Made by a program: the position numbers and the translations under genes. DNA of 64,000 nucleotides, taken from the sequence record MZ561532. One strand, written 5' to 3'. The notes beneath the pieces are model-generated. The model was not told where the DNA came from. It worked only from the letters and a program-made list of their open reading frames with translations, and did not search any database. Source of the DNA: Shigella phage PSD9. This document shows positions 4,096-12,637 of this stretch, piece by piece (positions within the stretch are counted from its first letter, which is position 1; every line of letters starts with the position of its first letter).

Positions 4096-4102
4096 CAAAA
4101 AA

Positions 4103-4120
4103 GGAGAGCATATGCTCTCC
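4103..4120. terminator. bidirectional intrinsic terminator (perfect 18-bp palindrome)
   Basis: GGAGAGCATATGCTCTCC flanked by A6 upstream and T-rich downstream; lies between convergent gene 54 (+) and the 4130-4420 ORF (-). Confidence 0.6.
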
Positions 4121-4129
4121 TTTAGGGGT

Positions 4130-4420
4130 TTATTTACGGAACGAAATGAAACCTGCTGTGGTCATTAGTGGTTGCTTTTTAACAAACACCGTAACCGAAA
4201 TAGGAGCTTCGGATTCGAGTTGTCCTGTCACTACACCGTTAAAAATGTTTTCGGTTTGTTCTGGATAAGAAAAATTCTCAACAGGTCGGATATCAAACTG
4301 TTTGTCTTCACCGAAAACTCGACGTAATTCATTACCCACTGCACTGTCAAACTCTTCAGAAGCAGGGATAACGTTTTCAACTACCAGTTCTTGACCATTA
4401 AAACGGAATGTAGATTTCAT
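4130..4420 (-). CDS. hypothetical protein
   Basis: 96-aa ORF, ATG preceded by GAGGAG; early promoter motif upstream. Confidence 0.45.
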   Translation of the reverse strand: MKSTFRFNGQELVVENVIPASEEFDSAVGNELRRVFGEDKQFDIRPVENFSYPEQTENIFNGVVTGQLESEAPISVTVFVKKQPLMTTAGFISFRK

Positions 4421-4448: not shown

Positions 4449-4478
4449 ATAGTACCACATCCTTGTGGTAATGTAAAC
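4449..4478 (-). promoter_or_regulatory. T4-type early promoter (GTTTAC-N18-TACTAT)
   Basis: -35 GTTTAC overlaps alt stop codon; -10 TACTAT; drives the 4130-4420 ORF. Confidence 0.45.
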
Positions 4479-6601
4479 TACATTTTGAATTTATTTGATA
4501 AAGAAGAGATATCCAAAGATGCAGCAAGGATTTCCATAGCCTCGTTACTTTCAGAAATGGATTCACTAACCAAGAACTGTTTAAAGCCGTCCATCAGGCG
4601 AACTTCACCAGTTTCCATCAAATGGTCACCATCGTAAACAGATTCACTGAGCTCTGAAGGAGGTGTTACGGTAGCTTCCATAAGGTATTTGTGAGATACT
4701 CTATCATTCATAGCAAAAGCCGCTACTTTATCAACCTTCAACAATAACCCACGCGGAAGGATAATTTCTGCTTCTTCGGCATATTCTGTAAGGTCACCAG
4801 GAGCGATAACTTTAACTGCTTCAGCACCTCGAATAACCATACCAATTTCAGCAATTCTATCTGCAGGACCTTCAGGTGCAATTGGATTACCAAACTCGTC
4901 TTCTTCCCATTCTACCTCTTCGTCATCGACTTCACCTACATCAGATGAACTACCACTAGCCAATTTAAACAACTCATCAGCGGAGGATAAAGAACCTTCA
5001 CCGCCAACAAAAACGGCTTGGTTGTCGAGGGCCATATAATTTTTACCAAATTCACCAAAGATGTTAGGTTTTAGTGAGGCTGACACAAAGTTCTTAAAGT
5101 AAAATGTTTTGTTATCGATATTATGGCGCAGAATTTTGTATGGCAAATCCTGACCACGATACAAAATAGTACCCTTAGGAAGTTTAATACCCTTAGTAAA
5201 TGCCGAGTCTAAATCCTTAATCAATTTAATAGCCGTTGTATTGTTTTCGGATTCAGGTTTACCTAAAAGGAATAAGTTCATAGGAGCATATTCAGCCGCG
5301 CAATATTCAATAATAGCATTGCTTTCGTCTTTGGTTAGGTCCTTAGGTTTAATGAGCTCGCCTGAATAAGCATATGCATCACTAATAGAATCGTTAACCA
5401 GTTTATAAACGGCTTCCATAGCGAAAGCAATTCTAGATGCTTTCTCTGAAGGGGAACCCTTAAAACGGGTACTCAGGTTATTAACAATTTTCTTAATAAT
5501 ATCCAGACTATTGGTTGTATTGATTTGCGAAAGGCCACTTAAAAGTCTATCGACTTCTGTATTAAAAAATGCCATATTATTAGAGTAAATTTCAAACCCT
5601 TGTTTATCTCTATTAGCATAATTTAGTTTAAATTTACTATCAGTCATTAAAGCGTGTGTGAGAGCAATAGTGTATCTAAAGTTGGCAAGGTCCTCGCTCT
5701 TAGATTTAAACTGAGAAGCCTGACGCATTTTAGTAATGGCACCTTTTTTAAAGTTCTGACTAATCTGTTCAATACCTTCGTTCTCAGGGCCTTCAGCCGT
5801 GTGAACCGGTACAGAAGCTTCAAACTCGTTATAAACCTGCAATTCTTTAGGGGACAAAGTTTCAGGCTCAGCAGTAGAATACTGCGCCGCCGCTGCCATA
5901 CGACGCGAAATCTTAGTACGAGTAATGACAGCCTTATCAGTACGTTTCTCTTCAACTTGTGCAATAGATGCCGCTACGGCTTCGACCTTACTTACAGCCT
6001 GGCCGGTTTTCTTAGAAACATACACTTCGCCAACTTTAGACTCAACTTTAGTATAAAGATCGGCATTAATTTCAGGCATACCCTTGATATCTTCAATATT
6101 AGCACCACGACGTACTAAAAGAACGTAGGTATGTTTTCCGCTGAATTGGAACATGTCGTCAACAACTTTAAACTTACCACCGGTACGAGCCATAGCCAAG
6201 CGAGCTAATACGCGCTGAACGGTAGGACCTTTACCTTTCATTTTCTTAGTAGGGAAACGGAACAAAACCGCGTCCATTTTAAGTTTGTTTATTTGTTCAT
6301 ATATGGTATCGAAAATGGTGTTCAGTGTACCGAGTGGATCGGTACCCAAACCACCCTTGAGTTCTGCCGGGGCGCCTTTAGCAGATAAACTCATTAGGAT
6401 GACATGGACGTACTTATCGCCTGGCTTAACCATTTTAATAGCATCGCCTTCAGACGCATAAGATACCATACGAGCAACCAGATTATCATTACCTGGTGCT
6501 TGGATAGAGAAAATCTGTGGAATACCGGAACCCGGTTTAAGATTTGTTACTGGATAGTTTTTAGCGGAATCACTATCAAAAACCTCATTTAAATTTTCCA
6601 T
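4478..6601 (-). CDS. alt: Alt-like ADP-ribosyltransferase, paralog 1 of 3
   Basis: 707 aa; C-terminal R-S-E motifs (ILYRGQ, FVSASL, EAEIILPRG); N-terminal ~230 aa near-identical to the two neighbours; start 3 nt after upstream stop. Confidence 0.7.
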   Translation of the reverse strand: MENLNEVFDSDSAKNYPVTNLKPGSGIPQIFSIQAPGNDNLVARMVSYASEGDAIKMVKPGDKYVHVILMSLSAKGAPAELKGGLGTDPLGTLNTIFDTIYEQINKLKMDAVLFRFPTKKMKGKGPTVQRVLARLAMARTGGKFKVVDDMFQFSGKHTYVLLVRRGANIEDIKGMPEINADLYTKVESKVGEVYVSKKTGQAVSKVEAVAASIAQVEEKRTDKAVITRTKISRRMAAAAQYSTAEPETLSPKELQVYNEFEASVPVHTAEGPENEGIEQISQNFKKGAITKMRQASQFKSKSEDLANFRYTIALTHALMTDSKFKLNYANRDKQGFEIYSNNMAFFNTEVDRLLSGLSQINTTNSLDIIKKIVNNLSTRFKGSPSEKASRIAFAMEAVYKLVNDSISDAYAYSGELIKPKDLTKDESNAIIEYCAAEYAPMNLFLLGKPESENNTTAIKLIKDLDSAFTKGIKLPKGTILYRGQDLPYKILRHNIDNKTFYFKNFVSASLKPNIFGEFGKNYMALDNQAVFVGGEGSLSSADELFKLASGSSSDVGEVDDEEVEWEEDEFGNPIAPEGPADRIAEIGMVIRGAEAVKVIAPGDLTEYAEEAEIILPRGLLLKVDKVAAFAMNDRVSHKYLMEATVTPPSELSESVYDGDHLMETGEVRLMDGFKQFLVSESISESNEAMEILAASLDISSLSNKFKM

Positions 6602-6604
6602 TAT

Positions 6605-8686
6605 TTACCCTTGGATGAATTTTTCTGGGATGTCATAGAGGTCTATGCATGAAGCCAAAAGAGGCAGTACATCAAACCGTGTAGATTTAACAAATGAATC
6701 AAAAGATACAGGGCTTTCGGAAGTATCGAAGTCATCTTGATATACGACCAACTCGCCGGTTTCCATTAGTACATCACCATCATATACCACAGATTCTTGA
6801 AGCTCATCTGTTGTCATAACTTCAGCTTGAATGAGTTTTGTATTACTAGATGTTGTTCCATCATTATTAGAAGCATCTGTTATTTTATTAACTTTGACCA
6901 TTAATCCACGCGGTAGAATAACTTCAGCTTCAGTTGCTATTCCGAGATTTCCTGGATATACGACATTAACTTTATGGGCCCCATCAATAGCCCATCCTAT
7001 TTGAACCTTAACGTAATCGGGATTTTCCTTATACGCTCTTATTTCATTAGGATTAATAGTTATTCCTTCTTCATTTTTATCAACTGTTAATTCGTTGCGA
7101 ACTTCCGGTTCTAAAAGACCAATACCAGCGTGCGTAACACCAAAACGTCCGAAAATTATAGGAGTTAAAGAAGTAGATACAAAATTTCTGAAATAGAACA
7201 CTTTATTTTTAACTAGTGCTTCGTATATAGGAGCAGTCATACTCTGTGCACGATAAACTGTGATGCCTTCTGGTATACGGTCGCCATTTTCAAAAGCGGA
7301 ATCCAAATTATTAACTGCAGATTCGATATCTTTTTCGCTCATAACCTCATAGTTCTGAGGATTATAACGTCCTAAAAGAAGATTATTTATGTCTGTATAT
7401 CCTGAACCACAATATTCTCTGATACCACGCTTTTGTGATGGAGTATATTTAGAACCTTCACGAGCAATAGTAATATCAACCATAATACCACCACCCACAC
7501 CAGCAAAACTATACACGCGTTTTTTAATGAACTTAGTCTTGGCTGCTTTCCACTTGGCCTCTGTCAATTCGTTCCAAAGGTCATCAGGTTGGCCTTTACG
7601 AGTTCTGTTATGGATAGCCAGCCACTCGCCTTTATATTCTTCGAAAATGGTATTAATAGCAGAGGCATATTTTTCTAGAGCTTTAACAGATGTCAAAGGT
7701 TCGTTTTTTATTGCTGTAAGAATTTTCTCTTTAATTTTCTCTTGGATTTCGCCAATACCGTGAAGTGGGAACATTTTATAATCGTAATGCAATTCTTCAG
7801 CAGTGCCTTCAGCCACTATATTAGCAACCTTATTTTTAGCCGCAGGAGAATTGTTATTAGTAACCATTTCCTGAGCCTCAGGGATTAATGGAACTGTTGC
7901 CGGTTTATTAAAATCCGCTGCAGTAGCTTCATATTTCTTAAACAATTCACTTTCATTACGATAAGATTCCAATGATTGGCTTGCTGCAATGGCGCGCCTA
8001 GAAATCTTAGTCTTGGTTATAACCATTTTATCAGTGCGACGTTCTTCAACCTTAGCAATACTACCGGCGATAGCAGTTTCTTTAGTAACCTGCACGCCTT
8101 CTTTTTTAGAAATATAAACTTCACCGACATCAGAATCTACCTTAGTATACAATTCAGCATTAATTCCAGGCATACCTTTGATATCTTCTATATCAGCTTG
8201 TTTACGAACTACCAGGATGTAAGTATGTTTACCGGTAAATTGGTACATAGCCGGAACTACTTTAAAACGTCCGCCTGTTTTCTGTGCTACCAAACGTTGG
8301 ATAATCCGTTGAACGATAGGGCCTTGACCTTTCATTTTCTTAGTAGGGAAACGGAACATCACGGCATCCATACGAAGCTTTTTAACCTGTTCGAATACTA
8401 CGTCGAAAACGGTATTAATAGCATCAATAGGAGTAGGGCCTAAGCCACCTTTAAGTTCTGCTGGAGTACCTTTAGCTGAAAGGCTCATAAGGATAACGTG
8501 GGCATATTTATCACCCATCTTAACCTGTTTAATAGCATCGCCTTCAGAAGCATAGGATACCATACGTGCTACTAACTGAGACTCCGCGTCTCCAATCTTC
8601 CAAATCTGAGGTACTTTAAGTTTTGGGTTCAAGTTCACAACAGGCAGTGTACCTTCGGACTCGAACACTTCATTTAATTGGGTCAT
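6605..8686 (-). CDS. alt: Alt-like ADP-ribosyltransferase, paralog 2 of 3
   Basis: 693 aa; motifs TVYRAQ, FVSTSL, EAEVILPRG; shared N-terminal region beginning MTQLNEVFE. Confidence 0.7.
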   Translation of the reverse strand: MTQLNEVFESEGTLPVVNLNPKLKVPQIWKIGDAESQLVARMVSYASEGDAIKQVKMGDKYAHVILMSLSAKGTPAELKGGLGPTPIDAINTVFDVVFEQVKKLRMDAVMFRFPTKKMKGQGPIVQRIIQRLVAQKTGGRFKVVPAMYQFTGKHTYILVVRKQADIEDIKGMPGINAELYTKVDSDVGEVYISKKEGVQVTKETAIAGSIAKVEERRTDKMVITKTKISRRAIAASQSLESYRNESELFKKYEATAADFNKPATVPLIPEAQEMVTNNNSPAAKNKVANIVAEGTAEELHYDYKMFPLHGIGEIQEKIKEKILTAIKNEPLTSVKALEKYASAINTIFEEYKGEWLAIHNRTRKGQPDDLWNELTEAKWKAAKTKFIKKRVYSFAGVGGGIMVDITIAREGSKYTPSQKRGIREYCGSGYTDINNLLLGRYNPQNYEVMSEKDIESAVNNLDSAFENGDRIPEGITVYRAQSMTAPIYEALVKNKVFYFRNFVSTSLTPIIFGRFGVTHAGIGLLEPEVRNELTVDKNEEGITINPNEIRAYKENPDYVKVQIGWAIDGAHKVNVVYPGNLGIATEAEVILPRGLMVKVNKITDASNNDGTTSSNTKLIQAEVMTTDELQESVVYDGDVLMETGELVVYQDDFDTSESPVSFDSFVKSTRFDVLPLLASCIDLYDIPEKFIQG

Positions 8687-8694
8687 AATCTATC

Positions 8695-10590
8695 CTATTT
8701 AAATAAATTTGCTAATTTTTCCATAGAATCTTCATACATAATTCTATCATAATTTCCAAACGAGAATCCGGTGCTATATGAATTTTCCTCTGTGATTTGC
8801 TCGGTAGCTACAACTTCACATTCCACTAAAACATATTTACCAATTGAACCCATAGGTCCCTTGGAAGCACCGTATACTTTATTAATCTTAAGCATAACCC
8901 CACGAGGAAGAATTACTTCGGTTTCTGTAGACCAATTAGCCAAGTCACCGGGCACAATAACCTTAATTTTATCAGCACCTTTAATAATTAACCCTAGCTT
9001 AATGGTATCTCTAGCACTTCCGGTCGCACTTTTAATGGTGTCTTCAAGATTACTATCTATATCGCTAGAAAGAGCTTCAGGGTCTAAGTTGGATTGAGCA
9101 TGACCCATTTCACCGAAAATATTAGGAGCCAATGAAGTTGATGCAAAAATAGGAAGATACATCACCTTATGTTTTATAGAATTCAAAGCCATTTCGGTAG
9201 GCATTATCTGAGAACGATACACTATGGTTCCTTTAGGAAGTTTTGTACCATTTTCAAATGTAGAATCCAACTCACCAATCATTTTTATCATTTCATCGGT
9301 GGTATCTGTTTTACCTAGCAAAAAGTTGTTTATATGGTTGTAGCCGCCACGAGTATACTTTTTGACTGCCTCTTCTTGAGGTTTGGATAAATTAGGATTA
9401 TCAGATATCTTAAACAATGGTTGGATAGATTTTGTATAAACTGCTACTAAGGATTTTATTACTTCCTTGATTTTAGATTCTCTAGCCCAAGTACCTTTAA
9501 CTGAATCATCTAAAAGGGCCGCAGCGACTAGTCTAAGAATGTCTACATGAGATTTACCTGATTTTAAAGCCTCTATGACACTATTAGATTTATCTAAAGA
9601 ATCTGATGCCTCTAAAGCAAACTTTATATCAGCAATTAGTTTAAGTTTGCGCTCGTCTACTTCAAATGATGGATTAACACCGTTAAAAATATAATCCAAA
9701 TATTCTGCCATTTCTTTAGAGGTGTCTTTTAATATTTTATTACTGGCTAAAGCTATTTGGCTTTCTTTAGAATCTTCAGAAGAATGAACGGAACTAGTAG
9801 CAGAATAATCTGCATAAGCTTTTTTGTGCTCTGCCGAAAATTTACTCAATCCTGTAGGCTCTGCTGTAGGATATAAAGCATTGATAGCAGCACGTTTAGA
9901 AACCTTTGTTTTGGTTATAACAGTTTTATCAGAACGTGATTTTTCTATTTCGTCTATGGACTTAGCTATAGCTTCTAGTTTGGTAACATCTTCGCCTGTT
10001 TTCTTTGAAACATACACGTCACCGACTTCAGATTCGACTTTAGTATACAATTCTAAATTAATATTAGGAATACCATTTATAGATTCTATATTTTTATTTT
10101 TACGATAGATAAAAACATACGAATGCTTACCGGTGAATTGATACAAGGCATCAAGAACTTTAAACTGTCCGCCTGCTCTAGAGGCTATTAATTTAGCCAA
10201 TACCCTCTGTATAGCTTTTTCCTGCCCTTTCATTTTCTTGGTAGGAAAACGGAACATAACAGCGTCCATACGAAGGGCCTTGACCTGTTCATAGACGATA
10301 TCAAATATAGAACGAATAGCGGAAATAGGATTGGTACCTAATCCACCTTTGAGTTCGGCAGGAGAACCTTTAGCCGATAGGCTCATTAAAACGACATGAA
10401 CATACTTGTCACCAGGCTTAACCTGACGAATTACATCGCCTTCGGAAGTATATGAAACCATGCGGGCAACAAGGTTCTCATTACCTTCAGCCTTTATATT
10501 CCAAATCTGTGGTACTTTAAGTTTAGGGTTTAAATTGACAGCTGATAAATCTATAGCGCCGTCAAATACCTCATTCAATTGTTCGGACAT
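8695..10590 (-). CDS. alt: Alt-like ADP-ribosyltransferase, paralog 3 of 3
   Basis: 631 aa; motifs IVYRSQ, FASTSL, ETEVILPRG; shared N-terminal region beginning MSEQLNEVFD; SD AGAGGAA. Confidence 0.7.
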   Translation of the reverse strand: MSEQLNEVFDGAIDLSAVNLNPKLKVPQIWNIKAEGNENLVARMVSYTSEGDVIRQVKPGDKYVHVVLMSLSAKGSPAELKGGLGTNPISAIRSIFDIVYEQVKALRMDAVMFRFPTKKMKGQEKAIQRVLAKLIASRAGGQFKVLDALYQFTGKHSYVFIYRKNKNIESINGIPNINLELYTKVESEVGDVYVSKKTGEDVTKLEAIAKSIDEIEKSRSDKTVITKTKVSKRAAINALYPTAEPTGLSKFSAEHKKAYADYSATSSVHSSEDSKESQIALASNKILKDTSKEMAEYLDYIFNGVNPSFEVDERKLKLIADIKFALEASDSLDKSNSVIEALKSGKSHVDILRLVAAALLDDSVKGTWARESKIKEVIKSLVAVYTKSIQPLFKISDNPNLSKPQEEAVKKYTRGGYNHINNFLLGKTDTTDEMIKMIGELDSTFENGTKLPKGTIVYRSQIMPTEMALNSIKHKVMYLPIFASTSLAPNIFGEMGHAQSNLDPEALSSDIDSNLEDTIKSATGSARDTIKLGLIIKGADKIKVIVPGDLANWSTETEVILPRGVMLKINKVYGASKGPMGSIGKYVLVECEVVATEQITEENSYSTGFSFGNYDRIMYEDSMEKLANLFK

Positions 10591-10612: not shown

Positions 10613-10620
10613 TATTTATG
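10613..10620 (-). promoter_or_regulatory. candidate late promoter (CATAAATA) upstream of the alt cluster
   Basis: CATAAATA on minus strand about 22 nt upstream of alt ATG, one mismatch to T4 late consensus TATAAATA. Confidence 0.3.
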
Positions 10621-10626
10621 CCAGAA

Positions 10627-10642
10627 AAGGCCCGAAGGCCTT
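10627..10642 (-). terminator. intrinsic terminator (GGCC-UUCG-GGCC + U-tract)
   Basis: Minus-strand RNA forms AAGGCC-UUCG-GGCCUU followed by UUUUCUGG; overlaps stop of the 10641-10823 ORF. Confidence 0.5.
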
Positions 10643-10823
10643 AAAGTGGTAGCAACGTACGGTATACTTCAAATTTAGGACCCTTTTCATAGCGGTCGAA
10701 ATTATCTTTAAAATCAGCGAATGCGATTTCATTTTCAAATTCAAGGACAATTTGGGACACTGCAGTGGAGACATCCCCACCTTCTTTATATCCAATAACC
10801 ACGGTTTCTAAATAAGCTTTCAT
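10641..10823 (-). CDS. hypothetical small protein
   Basis: 60 aa from internal ATG (MKAYLE...) 1 nt after ligase stop; the track's longer start overlaps ligase. Confidence 0.35.
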   Translation of the reverse strand: MKAYLETVVIGYKEGGDVSTAVSQIVLEFENEIAFADFKDNFDRYEKGPKFEVYRTLLPL

Positions 10824-10824
10824 A

Positions 10825-12348
10825 TTATAGTCCAGTTTGAGACCAATCACCAAATACATCTTCAAATGTATCAGCTTCTGTTTTATCGAAACGCCAACCT
10901 TTAATGATTGGAAGGAAAATACCTACAGTATCGGTACGTCCTTTAGAATGAACCCAACCATTACATTCACAGTCAGCAATACGTCCAATCAACTTACCTT
11001 CACGAGCTTGTTTCATAAGAAGTTCACGGTCTAAATCAGGACGGTCTTCCAATGGAATCAATACTTTTTTACCTGATTTATCTTTCTTATGGGTGGTATC
11101 TTTAAAGCCTGAACCACAGTCGCTTGTAATTCGACGACAACGTGATACCAACTCGACACCACCTAGCTTGTTAGGGTCCTTCGAGTGTTCATAATAACCC
11201 ACCACTTCTAAAGCAATATCGATTACTTCTTTGAACTTGATAAGATTCTTAGAACGACGGTTTTCCCAGTAGGAGTCCATGTTCTTAAGGATAATGCCTT
11301 CCAGACCTTGGTCGACATATTTCTTATAAACGACTTTAGCTTCTTCAAGATTATTAACCCACTGGTTTTCGATAGCTTCAACACGCGTTGTACCATGCAA
11401 TACGACATTATGAGCAACCATAAGTTCTAAGGCTGTAAAGCGTACATCGTACTTATCGCCTTTAATTTTACCTTCGGAATATACGACATCCAATGGGACA
11501 TAATCCCATGCCTGTAATACCATACCAGCGGCTTCAGTAGCCGAAATAGTTCCTTGAAGAGCTTTGTTAGCCAAGCCATTTGACGTAGAACGATCGGCGA
11601 CAGTTTGGAATTCCTTAGCCTTACTTAATTCAGGAAGTTCCTCGTCAAACATACTAAACAAATCATTAGATGCTTTAGGTTCTACCTTAGGAGTATGGTA
11701 AACTAATTCGCCATCAATCATAACGCCATTAGGATGGCGTTGTCGAGCTTCTTCGGTCATGGCCATTAATTCAGCCGCCAAAAGATTAAGCCCTTGATAT
11801 TCGTTACCACCACGAGTAAGGAATGTCACACCATCGTTACGAACTTCGGCAAAACAACGAGCACCATCAGCTTTTAATTGAGCAAACGCTGGCCATTTAA
11901 TATTTTTCTTAATCAAAGCTTCATCATAAGAACTCGCCAACATCTGCGGTTGTTCAGGGATTAAACCTTTCCAAACCTTGTTAGCAATAGAAATCGATGC
12001 ACCACATTCAAGGTCGCGCATCATTACACGACGTAATACCTCGGCATCCAGGGCCTTAGCATCAGCAATGATTTGAGCCAGTTCTTCAATAGCCGCATTA
12101 CCCGTAATCTTACGTGTGGCTAATGTGAATTCAGCGAAATCAAGAAGGTCTTCAAGAGTAATCATACCAAAGGATTGAGATGTAAATCCAGGTTCTGGCC
12201 ACTTTTTAATACCGTAGTTCAGACGACGGGTATAAGCCATACGATAAACACGTTTCAGAAGCTCATTGTTCTTTTCACGAGCAATAATGGCTTCTTTAGC
12301 TTTAGTAGAATCAATAGCAGCAATTTCGTTTAAAATATCTAAAATCAT
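10825..12348 (-). CDS. 30: ATP-dependent DNA ligase
   Basis: Adenylation motif KADGARC; strong end-to-end resemblance to T4 gp30; start set at MILDILNEIA (track start is 13 codons upstream). Confidence 0.9.
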   Translation of the reverse strand: MILDILNEIAAIDSTKAKEAIIAREKNNELLKRVYRMAYTRRLNYGIKKWPEPGFTSQSFGMITLEDLLDFAEFTLATRKITGNAAIEELAQIIADAKALDAEVLRRVMMRDLECGASISIANKVWKGLIPEQPQMLASSYDEALIKKNIKWPAFAQLKADGARCFAEVRNDGVTFLTRGGNEYQGLNLLAAELMAMTEEARQRHPNGVMIDGELVYHTPKVEPKASNDLFSMFDEELPELSKAKEFQTVADRSTSNGLANKALQGTISATEAAGMVLQAWDYVPLDVVYSEGKIKGDKYDVRFTALELMVAHNVVLHGTTRVEAIENQWVNNLEEAKVVYKKYVDQGLEGIILKNMDSYWENRRSKNLIKFKEVIDIALEVVGYYEHSKDPNKLGGVELVSRCRRITSDCGSGFKDTTHKKDKSGKKVLIPLEDRPDLDRELLMKQAREGKLIGRIADCECNGWVHSKGRTDTVGIFLPIIKGWRFDKTEADTFEDVFGDWSQTGL

Positions 12349-12358
12349 AATCACCTCA

Positions 12359-12637
12359 TTAGTCATGGATTCTATTATAAGCCACATCAGCCAAAAGCAA
12401 GTCTAATCGCTTATGATAAGAGAACACAAATCTCATTCGCCCATCAGATTTGAACTTGGACATAAAGTGGACATAAATGAATCCCTGTTCGACGCATTCG
12501 CGCCAAACAGGATGGTCTTTAGCCGGATTTACATCAAATGAGTAATCATGATTCACATGACGAATAAACTGGTTTACATGACCATAATCCATTGTAGTGG
12601 TAGGACCATAGTCTGAAATTGTATGAACTACAAACAT
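12359..12637 (-). CDS. hypothetical protein
   Basis: Start taken at internal ATG (MFVVHTI...) with GAGG SD, which avoids overlap with upstream gene. Confidence 0.4.
   Translation of the reverse strand: MFVVHTISDYGPTTTMDYGHVNQFIRHVNHDYSFDVNPAKDHPVWRECVEQGFIYVHFMSKFKSDGRMRFVFSYHKRLDLLLADVAYNRIHD

Follow-up and report, generated by a model that had tools for sequence, protein, structure and literature searches.

The 64,000-nucleotide (nt) stretch of Shigella phage PSD9 analyzed here (sequence record MZ561532; the whole of it is called the window below) contains a tandem array of three intact alt genes, named c1 (4478-6601), c2 (6605-8686) and c3 (8695-10590), which encode ADP-ribosyltransferases (ARTs) related to the Alt protein of phage T4. 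Comparison with related phages identifies the mature effector core of these proteins as the unit that appears to have moved between phage genera, the N-terminal (N) module and the C-terminal propeptide (C-propeptide) having stayed with the phage lineage. No description of such core swapping between lineage-specific ends was found in the literature searched. The array itself is ordinary: it was recognized correctly, it belongs to a known family, and close relatives have it annotated already. The genes and the parts of their products are located as follows (aa, amino acids; ORF, open reading frame).

4478..6601, minus: alt copy 1 (c1), an ORF of 707 aa in the distal slot; PF03496 E = 2.4e-17
6584-6601, minus: N-terminal propeptide of c1, aa 1-6, ending L-N-E
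5897..6601, minus: N module of c1, aa 1-235; counterparts in the distal slot of JS10, JS98 and MX01 share 95-97% identity with it
5357..5896, minus: variable middle domain of c1, aa 236-415; 47% identity with T2 slot 2, versus 11-14% with c2 and c3
4643..5356, minus: ART domain of c1, aa 416-653; R482, S507-A-S509, E610-A-E612; 31-aa acidic insert
4481..4642, minus: predicted C-propeptide of c1, aa 654-707 (54 aa), after L-S-E653
6605..8686, minus: alt copy 2 (c2), 693 aa; PF03496 E = 4.5e-36; T4/T2 Alt ortholog; mosaic
8669-8686, minus: N-terminal propeptide of c2, aa 1-6, ending L-N-E
7982..8686, minus: N module of c2, aa 1-235; counterparts in slot 1 of JS10, JS98 and MX01 share 97-98% identity with it
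7472..7981, minus: variable middle domain of c2, aa 236-405; 64% identity with T2 slot 1 and 36% with JS98 slot 1, versus 11-17% with c1 and c3
6794..7471, minus: ART domain of c2, aa 406-631; R479, S504-T-S506, E586-A-E588
6608..6793, minus: predicted C-propeptide of c2, aa 632-693 (62 aa), after L-Q-E631
8695..10590, minus: alt copy 3 (c3), an ORF of 631 aa in the promoter-proximal slot; PF03496 E = 6.5e-14; C-type
10570-10590, minus: N-terminal propeptide of c3, 7 aa, ending L-N-E
9886..10590, minus: N module of c3, aa 1-235, including the 7-aa propeptide that ends L-N-E
9406..9885, minus: variable all-helical middle domain of c3, aa 236-395; 14-17% identical to the other copies; helices from an AlphaFold (AF2) model
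8788..9405, minus: ART domain of c3, aa 396-601; R459, S484-T-S486, E556-T-E558
8698..8787, minus: predicted C-propeptide of c3, aa 602-631 (30 aa), after I-T-E601

Orthology could be assigned to every copy. c2 shares 47.6% identity with T4 Alt along its full length and 61% in the ART domain plus tail, its ART core is 85% identical to that of T2 slot 1, and it is classified here as the ortholog of the T4 and T2 Alt. c1 and c3 share 32-34% identity with T4 Alt. In T4, the boundary of alt with the remnant behind it is homologous to the c2-to-c1 junction; by this, and by the grouping of its ART domain with T2 slot 2, c1 is the ortholog of the second alt of T2 and of the T4 remnant alt.-1/alt.-2. 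c3 is assigned to a third, rare type, found in WG01 and as alta in SP18.

The trees of N modules and ART domains are incongruent (98-100% bootstrap): N modules group by phage genus, and ART domains group by type across genera. In the N-module tree, T2 slot 1, T2 slot 2 and T4 form a single clade with 100% bootstrap, and the c1-, c2- and c3-type N modules of Dhakavirus are 62-67% identical to one another and 42-47% identical to those of Tequatrovirus. In the ART tree, c2 pairs with T2 slot 1 (100%), c1 with T2 slot 2 (98%), c3 with SP18 alta (100%), MX01 slot 2 with SP18 altb (100%), and T4 with VR5 slot 1 (100%).

The change of partners within a single gene is visible in c2, which was mapped by sliding windows of 150 nt, a length that sets the resolution of the breakpoints. 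Compared with JS98 slot 1, c2 DNA is 87-96% identical over nt 0-650, 95-96% identical over the last ~200 nt, and 37-74% identical in between. When T2 slot 1 is the reference, the N module shows 42-62% identity, nt 1200-1850 show 84-94%, and the tail shows 51-67%. The numbers of synonymous substitutions per synonymous site (dS) follow the same partners: 0.44 versus T2 and 1.6 versus JS98 in the ART domain, 0.43 versus JS98 and saturated versus T2 in the N module, and 0.22 versus JS98 and saturated versus T2 in the C-propeptide. The distal switch of identity falls at the predicted C-terminal cleavage site, within the 150-nt window resolution. It is because N module, ART domain and C-propeptide switch partners in both identity and dS that the mature effector core is regarded as the mobile unit; this would fit an interaction of both ends with the prohead core of their own phage.

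All three proteins belong to the Alt family, as the sequence-only reading had supposed. They match PF03496 (ADP-ribosyltransferase exoenzyme) with 63.3, 124.5 and 52.2 bits for c1, c2 and c3, the curated cut-off being 23.4, and match PHROG 802 ("Alt-like RNA polymerase ADP-ribosyltransferase") over their full length (E = 1e-205 to 1e-263), and they keep the R, S and E-x-E residues; chance can be excluded for these family matches. The three adjacent minus-strand ORFs of 707, 693 and 631 aa lie exactly at the coordinates given in that reading and are separated by gaps of 3 and 8 nt. Its "near-identical" N-terminal ~230 aa proved to be a real, family-specific module, although one with only 63-67% protein identity among the copies (residues 1-235; 50-76% at the DNA level) and 42-46% identity to residues 1-235 of T4 Alt. 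The divergence that it described downstream is confirmed, with 10-24% identity in the middle region (about aa 236-415) and 33-38% in the ART domain plus tail. The catalytic triad that it gave as R / S-T-S / E-x-E holds in all copies for R and E-x-E, and in c2 and c3 for S-T-S; c1 has S-A-S. The array occupies the position of alt in T4, with gene 30 (ligase) and alt.1 on one side and alt.-3 and gene 54 on the other, in synteny with the T4 order ligase - alt.1 - alt - alt.-3 - gp54/gp48 (baseplate). The source phage can be placed as a WG01-like Dhakavirus (Straboviridae, Tevenvirinae), i.e., a T4-like coliphage. No further ART genes of the ModA/ModB kind were found in the window, where a hidden Markov model of the Alt ART region matched just c1, c2 and c3.

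The ART domains belong to the C3/Vip2 type, with R-S-E residues and the E-x-E form of the ADP-ribosylating toxin turn-turn (ARTT) motif, and are predicted to be arginine-specific. The R, the first S of S-x-S, both E of E-x-E and the LPRG that follows are invariant in 49 diverse homologs and are present in c1-c3; the central residue of S-x-S, which is A in c1, varies among the same homologs. The fold was checked by model on c3, the most divergent copy, c1 and c2 being assessed by Pfam and alignment. The AF2 model of c3 (predicted local distance difference test, pLDDT, 78; predicted template modeling score, pTM, 0.70; residues 300-350 of the middle domain at lower confidence) retrieved Vis, C3bot, Certhrax, CDTa, Vip2 and iota Ia from PDB by Foldseek (E = 6e-8 to 1e-5, target TM score ~0.6), in line with a C3/Vip2-type fold. 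No solved Alt structure was found in PDB by sequence, the best matches being BECa and CDTa at E ~1e-3.

The residues of ARTT turn 1 differ between the copies (EYAE, GIAT and NWST), and the segment between S-T-S and E-x-E, 74-105 aa long, is unrelated in sequence between copies. In c1 it contains an acidic insert (aa 552-582; 4856-4948, minus) of 31 aa, with 13 D/E versus 1 K/R, between the S-x-S strand and the ARTT loop. Because of this insert the predicted mature c1 is acidic, with an isoelectric point (pI) of 5.96, versus 8.8-8.9 for c2 and c3; T4 Alt is also basic. The differences in ARTT turn, insert, middle domain and pI suggest distinct specificities. Purifying selection is evident between Dhakavirus alleles: the ratio of nonsynonymous to synonymous rates (dN/dS) is 0.02-0.10 in every c1 and c2 region (0.02-0.03 in the c1 ART domain) and 0.06 in the c3 N module.

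Both ends of the proteins carry candidate sites for the prohead protease. The motif L-N-E-V-F, which the sequence-only reading had compared to such a site, lies at residues 4-8 in c1, 4-8 in c2 and 5-9 in c3 and, by homology, deserves that comparison: it aligns with the mapped gp21 site I-T-E(6)|L-F of T4, so that LNE-6 (c1), LNE-6 (c2) and LNE-7 (c3) correspond to ITE-6, and the motif occurs in most of the homologs retrieved. That reading had overlooked a second, C-terminal (L/I)xE site in c1-c3. In T4, mass spectrometry found gpAlt cut at ITE-6 and, unexpectedly, also at LTE-619, with loss of a 63-aa C-propeptide and 68.2 kDa left (PMC5694885). At the level of the motif, c1-c3 have (L/I)xE at both of the aligned positions, and the three proteins are most likely trimmed at both ends by a gp21 homolog. 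The mapped sites applied to the T4 Alt sequence gave 68.2 kDa, equal to the published mature mass; the masses predicted for mature c1, c2 and c3 are 71.1, 69.5 and 65.2 kDa. The predicted C-propeptides are acidic in all three copies, and c3 keeps the terminal L-A-x-x-F motif. About 40 copies of gpAlt are present per T4 head, and gp21, the prohead protease, cuts a small peptide from the N-terminus (PMC9958956); in an RB69-like phage with a single Alt, mass spectrometry detected this protein in the particles (PMC6563131).

The following signals lie upstream of c3.

10613..10620, minus: late-promoter-like box CATAAATA, 22 nt upstream of the c3 ATG; the sole such box for the array
10629..10640, minus: tetraloop hairpin GGCC-UUCG-GGCC with a T run behind it; separates alt.1 from the late-promoter-like box

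The box stands where T4 alt has the canonical late promoter TATAAATA. Of 17 related loci that were inspected, 15 have (T/C)ATAAATA ahead of their first alt gene, as T4 does, so that the motif is conserved across genera. No separate promoter was found for c2 or c1, the sole nearby near-match overlapping the c3 stop codon 9 nt from the next ATG. We infer from the one conserved box, and from the lack of any before c2 or c1, that c3-c2-c1 would form a single late operon. T4 and 15 of the 17 loci have this UUCG-loop hairpin, or a close variant, at the corresponding place, where it probably ends or stabilizes early transcripts from ligase and alt.1.

The array is shared with close relatives. Over a 6.8-kb region the DNA identity is 98.1% to vB_EcoM-E33, 97.5% to WG01, and 97.0-97.3% to ABTNLS3, PSD2002 and LQ5; the identical three-gene array is annotated in WG01, E33, ABTNLS3, PSD2002, LQ5 and 04086, and the WG01 RefSeq record already labels ORF199-201 as three Alt-like RNA polymerase ADP-ribosyltransferases. 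JS10, JS98 and IME08 have the c2- and c1-type genes only. Of about 1,220 phage records that contain Alt, 475 have a full-length c1-type paralog. Among 60 evenly spaced records, 29 had one N-module place, 29 had two, and two had three. The effector part of c3 (aa 236-631) is far rarer: just seven of 50,697 phage records carry it at 99% identity or more, its next relatives being the "alta" genes of SP18-like Gaprivervirus (58-63%, six records), beyond which matches are limited to the ART core at less than 40% identity. The clade of MX01, QL01, AnYang, C6, KIT01 and others (12 Dhakavirus records) also has a triple array, but with a different third gene (D-type). Three copies being usual in close relatives without divergence of targets, a circumstance that the sequence-only reading had held against its own interpretation, is thereby found in part, with the identical array in the six nearest relatives and a different triple array in 12 more records.

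In MX01 (L004, 5507-7552) and QL01 (L005, 6506-8551) the third paralog has 681 aa and is flanked by both resident genes. In the N module it shares 91-92% identity with the adjoining c1-type gene, and its effector part is nearest to SP18 altb (77% identity; ART grouping with 100% bootstrap). Since c3 is closest to SP18 alta and the extra MX01 gene to SP18 altb, both kinds of extra Dhakavirus copy have their nearest relatives among Gaprivervirus genes.

The sequence-only reading had described the array as a set of effectors expanded relative to T4, and this part of it does not stand. In T4, alt is directly trailed by alt.-1/alt.-2, for which the GenBank record notes an old duplication of the alt start. 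These fragments are 96-97% identical in amino acid sequence to residues 1-116 of the intact second alt of T2; they (L001, 22056-22441) match a second alt of the T2 type (L030, 4305-6362) over 350 nt at its 5' end, with a frameshift, and T4 DNA rejoins T2 DNA 1.69 kb further on, a clean deletion relative to T2. The single alt of T4 thus results from loss, through deletion and frameshift, of a T2-type second alt, T2 keeping two intact copies. T4 being a deletion derivative, speaking of an expansion relative to it is misleading, as is also apparent from the c1-type gene in 475 records. Alt paralogs were recorded in 2006 for RB49, 44RR and T4 (Nolan 2006, PMC1524935); this paper and the GenBank note for T4 were all that the literature search returned on multi-copy alt arrays, with no dedicated study among the results.

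Taken together, it is fairly probable that c1-c3 are late-made, capsid-packaged, doubly trimmed and injected arginine-specific mono-ARTs, with different targets for c1 and c3. The four-part proteins (N module with short propeptide, helical paralog-specific middle, ART domain, acidic C-propeptide) would be synthesized late and incorporated into the prohead scaffolding core via their terminal regions, where the gp21 homolog would trim both ends; the trimmed proteins would be kept in the DNA-filled head, injected with the DNA, and would modify host proteins by mono-ADP-ribosylation of arginines ahead of all phage gene expression. The classical role of Alt on RNA polymerase (PMC2988021), most likely on its alpha subunit, probably falls to c2; for c1 and c3, different or further substrates are probable. 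These two appear to be old, separately conserved paralog lineages, each ART type being kept as a separate clade across genera in the tree.

A broader proposal is more tentative, and we would give it somewhat less than an even chance: the alt locus of T-even-type phages may be a recombining array of injected effectors, in which the lineage-specific N module and C-propeptide serve as "capsid-loading handles" and the cores are interchangeable across Tequatrovirus, Dhakavirus and Gaprivervirus, the three paralogs being non-redundant, each with its own target set, at least one of which would be other than RNA polymerase (e.g., a defense or toxin protein).

Several points weigh against these interpretations. 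For c1-c3 we infer the expression timing, packaging, cleavage, injection, catalysis and target divergence. The differences in the ARTT loop and the insert fall short of proving different specificity. T4 Alt is non-essential and its targets are broad and loosely defined (PMC2988021), so the paralogs could overlap heavily in substrates. c1 lacks the central T of S-T-S (S-A-S, 507-509), and the C-propeptide of c3 is of half length with pLDDT below 50. Finally, CATAAATA has one mismatch to the T4 late consensus, and the four exact matches to TATAAATA in the whole window are no more than expected by chance.

The substrate overlap is central to one of the alternatives, in which all copies modify the same substrates, chiefly Arg265 of RNA polymerase alpha, and the array provides more, or buffered, ART activity, the divergence being neutral drift. 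The breadth and dispensability of T4 Alt (PMC2988021) are consistent with it, as are the catalytic residues and arginine-type E-x-E common to all copies and the viability of phages with one, two or three alt genes. However, drift would give relaxed constraint or decay, as in T4 alt.-1/-2, and the ART types instead persist as clades across genera with dN/dS of 0.02-0.1 in all regions including the middle domain, the most divergent parts being the substrate-recognition ARTT turn and the adjacent insert. We consider this explanation unlikely. Somewhat better placed, although still doubtful, is the view that the extra paralogs, especially c3 and c1, inactivate host defense or toxin proteins on injection in the course of an arms race; it overlaps with our preferred reading and names a different primary function, to which we likewise assign a minor share of probability. 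The MazF toxin is among the reported substrates of T4 Alt. The turnover of cassettes (the third slot being C-type in seven records and D-type in 12 Dhakavirus records) and the exchange of effector cores between genera speak in favor of counter-defense, and the internal head proteins of T-even phages are diverse, include the restriction-endonuclease inhibitor IPI, and have only a targeting sequence in common (PMC3012670). On the other hand, no paralog has a known or predicted defense target, and the strong purifying selection within types speaks against rapid positive selection on the enzymes.

It is quite improbable that one copy, e.g., c1 or c3, is a pseudo-enzyme or remains unpackaged, acting as a structural internal head protein or a decoy. 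Such a role could be read from the S-A-S and the 31-aa acidic insert of c1, and from the c3 C-propeptide, which is ~30 aa shorter and ends in a tail with pLDDT below 50. Yet the center of S-x-S is not conserved in the family and the invariant R, first S and both E are all present; c3 retains its ITE site and the terminal L-A-x-x-F; and the c1 type, with its low ART dN/dS, is intact in the 475 records. An assembly artefact, i.e., a collapsed or expanded repeat, is excluded: tandem paralogs sharing a 700-nt module are a classic hazard, but modules with 50-76% DNA identity are too divergent to mislead an assembler, and the identical arrangement is found in at least six independently sequenced phages. 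Arginine-specific, injected ARTs with separate targets for c1 and c3 remain the reading that we prefer.

Further observations concern the N module. Between c3 and its WG01 counterpart, the effector part is 99-100% identical in DNA and the N module 80-92%, with dS of 0.54 (9886-10590 versus 8787-9491 of the WG01 locus, L002), which indicates a recent recombination confined to the c3 N module. That c1, c2 and c3 had recently converted one another in this module was considered and rejected, with their 50-76% DNA identity and no high-identity tracts; homogenization within the lineage would have occurred on a longer time scale. A profile built from the three N modules matched 72 of 1.84 billion cluster representatives, and the great majority of these have the length of Alt (~600-712 aa). 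Of ten matches of atypical length compared with Pfam, five had PF03496, two were Pfam-negative with degenerate ART motifs by eye, and the other three gave spurious sub-threshold matches or none. A fusion of the N module to non-ART cargo is unsupported by this 72-protein result. PF26846 is listed in precomputed annotations on 120 of 120 homologs (P0001-P0120), being the sole family on the 371-aa P0114, and presumably describes the Alt N-terminal module.

When the modeled c3 N module (aa 1-235) was compared with BFVD by Foldseek, large uncharacterized proteins were matched with E = 1e-4 to 1e-8, TM 0.4-0.64 and 12-18% identity, from phages Dickeya RC-2014, Erwinia phiEa2809 and Shigella MK-13 (Ackermannviridae-type), Vibrio phages, and Agrobacterium phage Atu_ph07. 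Matches annotated as zeta-toxin, deaminase or ParB had TM 0.4-0.5 and are to be taken as a lead only. On these model comparisons the fold of the N module may be that of a wider head-loading adaptor, used also with non-ART cargo in other myoviruses.

The array is flanked by homologs of two small T4 genes.

10641..10865, minus: alt.1 homolog, upstream flank; PHROG 1976 E = 4e-31; annotated alt.1 in JS10
4130..4420, minus: alt.-3 homolog, downstream flank, 96 aa (the T4 length); PHROG 1739 E = 3e-42

The mechanically called ORFs upstream (10641-10865 and 10825-12387, minus) overstate both genes and overlap each other by 41 nt: the alt.1 family match spans residues 15-74 of a TTG-initiated 74-aa ORF, and the ligase ORF (10825-12387, minus) has 520 aa versus 507 aa annotated in WG01. 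Downstream, alt.-3 forms a separate early unit, with an early-type promoter TTTACA-17-TACTAT at 4477..4449 and an intrinsic terminator at 4123..4100 (minus). In T4, mutants with a C-terminal extension of Alt.-3 evade the CmdTAC defense by blocking degradation of CmdA, the role of the wild-type protein being unknown (PMC11618068). No tRNA genes or Rfam families at gathering threshold were found anywhere in the window, and no small coding-strand ORFs of the immunity type in the 3- and 8-nt gaps between the alt genes.

Alt is the textbook example of a capsid-packed enzyme that acts on the host before phage genes are read, and T4, from which most of this knowledge comes, is a degenerate case in which the second copy was lost. 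Arrays of two or three copies under constraint offer a comparative system for substrate choice by R-S-E ARTs, and likewise for the roles of the N module and propeptides in capsid loading, a matter still described as mysterious in T4 head reviews (PMC9958956). That cores are exchanged and the ends conserved hints at natural design rules for foreign cargo in T4-type capsids. The classification of the genes, already annotated in public genomes, is unchanged, and the interchange of cores is a modest addition.

Among known systems, T4 gpAlt, a packaged and injected NAD+--arginine ADP-ribosyltransferase, resembles the array in locus, four-part architecture, catalytic residues, the two aligned (L/I)xE sites, and the layout of hairpin and (T/C)ATAAATA box; it differs in having one gene and a decayed remnant versus three intact genes, and the middle domains of c1 and c3 are unrelated to its own. 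The arrays of WG01, E33, ABTNLS3, PSD2002, LQ5 and 04086 contain the same genes in the same order with 97-100% identity and show allelic differences only. T2, JS10/JS98 (alta/altb), SP18 and VR5 have two-gene tandem arrays, in which the effector types present vary by phage: c2 and c1 correspond to slots 1 and 2 of T2 and JS10, and the c3 type to SP18 alta. In the MX01 clade a D-type (SP18-altb-like) gene lies between the residents, whereas here a C-type gene lies upstream of both.

Of the bacterial toxins, C3bot, Vis, Certhrax, Vip2, iota Ia, CDTa and BECa share the fold and the R / S-T-S / E-x-E logic at ~15-20% identity. C3-like and binary toxins differ from Alt in delivery, as Alt comes without a translocation component and enters by capsid injection. 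The binary toxins Vip2, Ia and CDTa contain two tandem ART folds, and the array proteins were found to lack their degenerate ART-fold N-terminal adaptor. The T-even internal proteins (IPs) IPI, IPII and IPIII resemble Alt in combining a conserved targeting end, removed by the protease, with diverse injected cargo that varies between related phages (PMC3012670, PMC9026906). They have, however, a single 10-aa capsid targeting sequence (CTS), whereas the conserved part of Alt is a folded domain of 235 aa, retained after maturation, with propeptides at both termini; and IP cargo is diverse, whereas Alt cargo, to judge from the 72 proteins matched by the N-module profile, is always an ART. Polymorphic toxins (Rhs/CDI and MuF-fused phage toxins) share with alt a conserved delivery part, exchangeable cores, tandem paralogs and recombination at module boundaries, but the alt arrays have no immunity genes, exchange an internal part between conserved flanks, and employ a single enzyme family.

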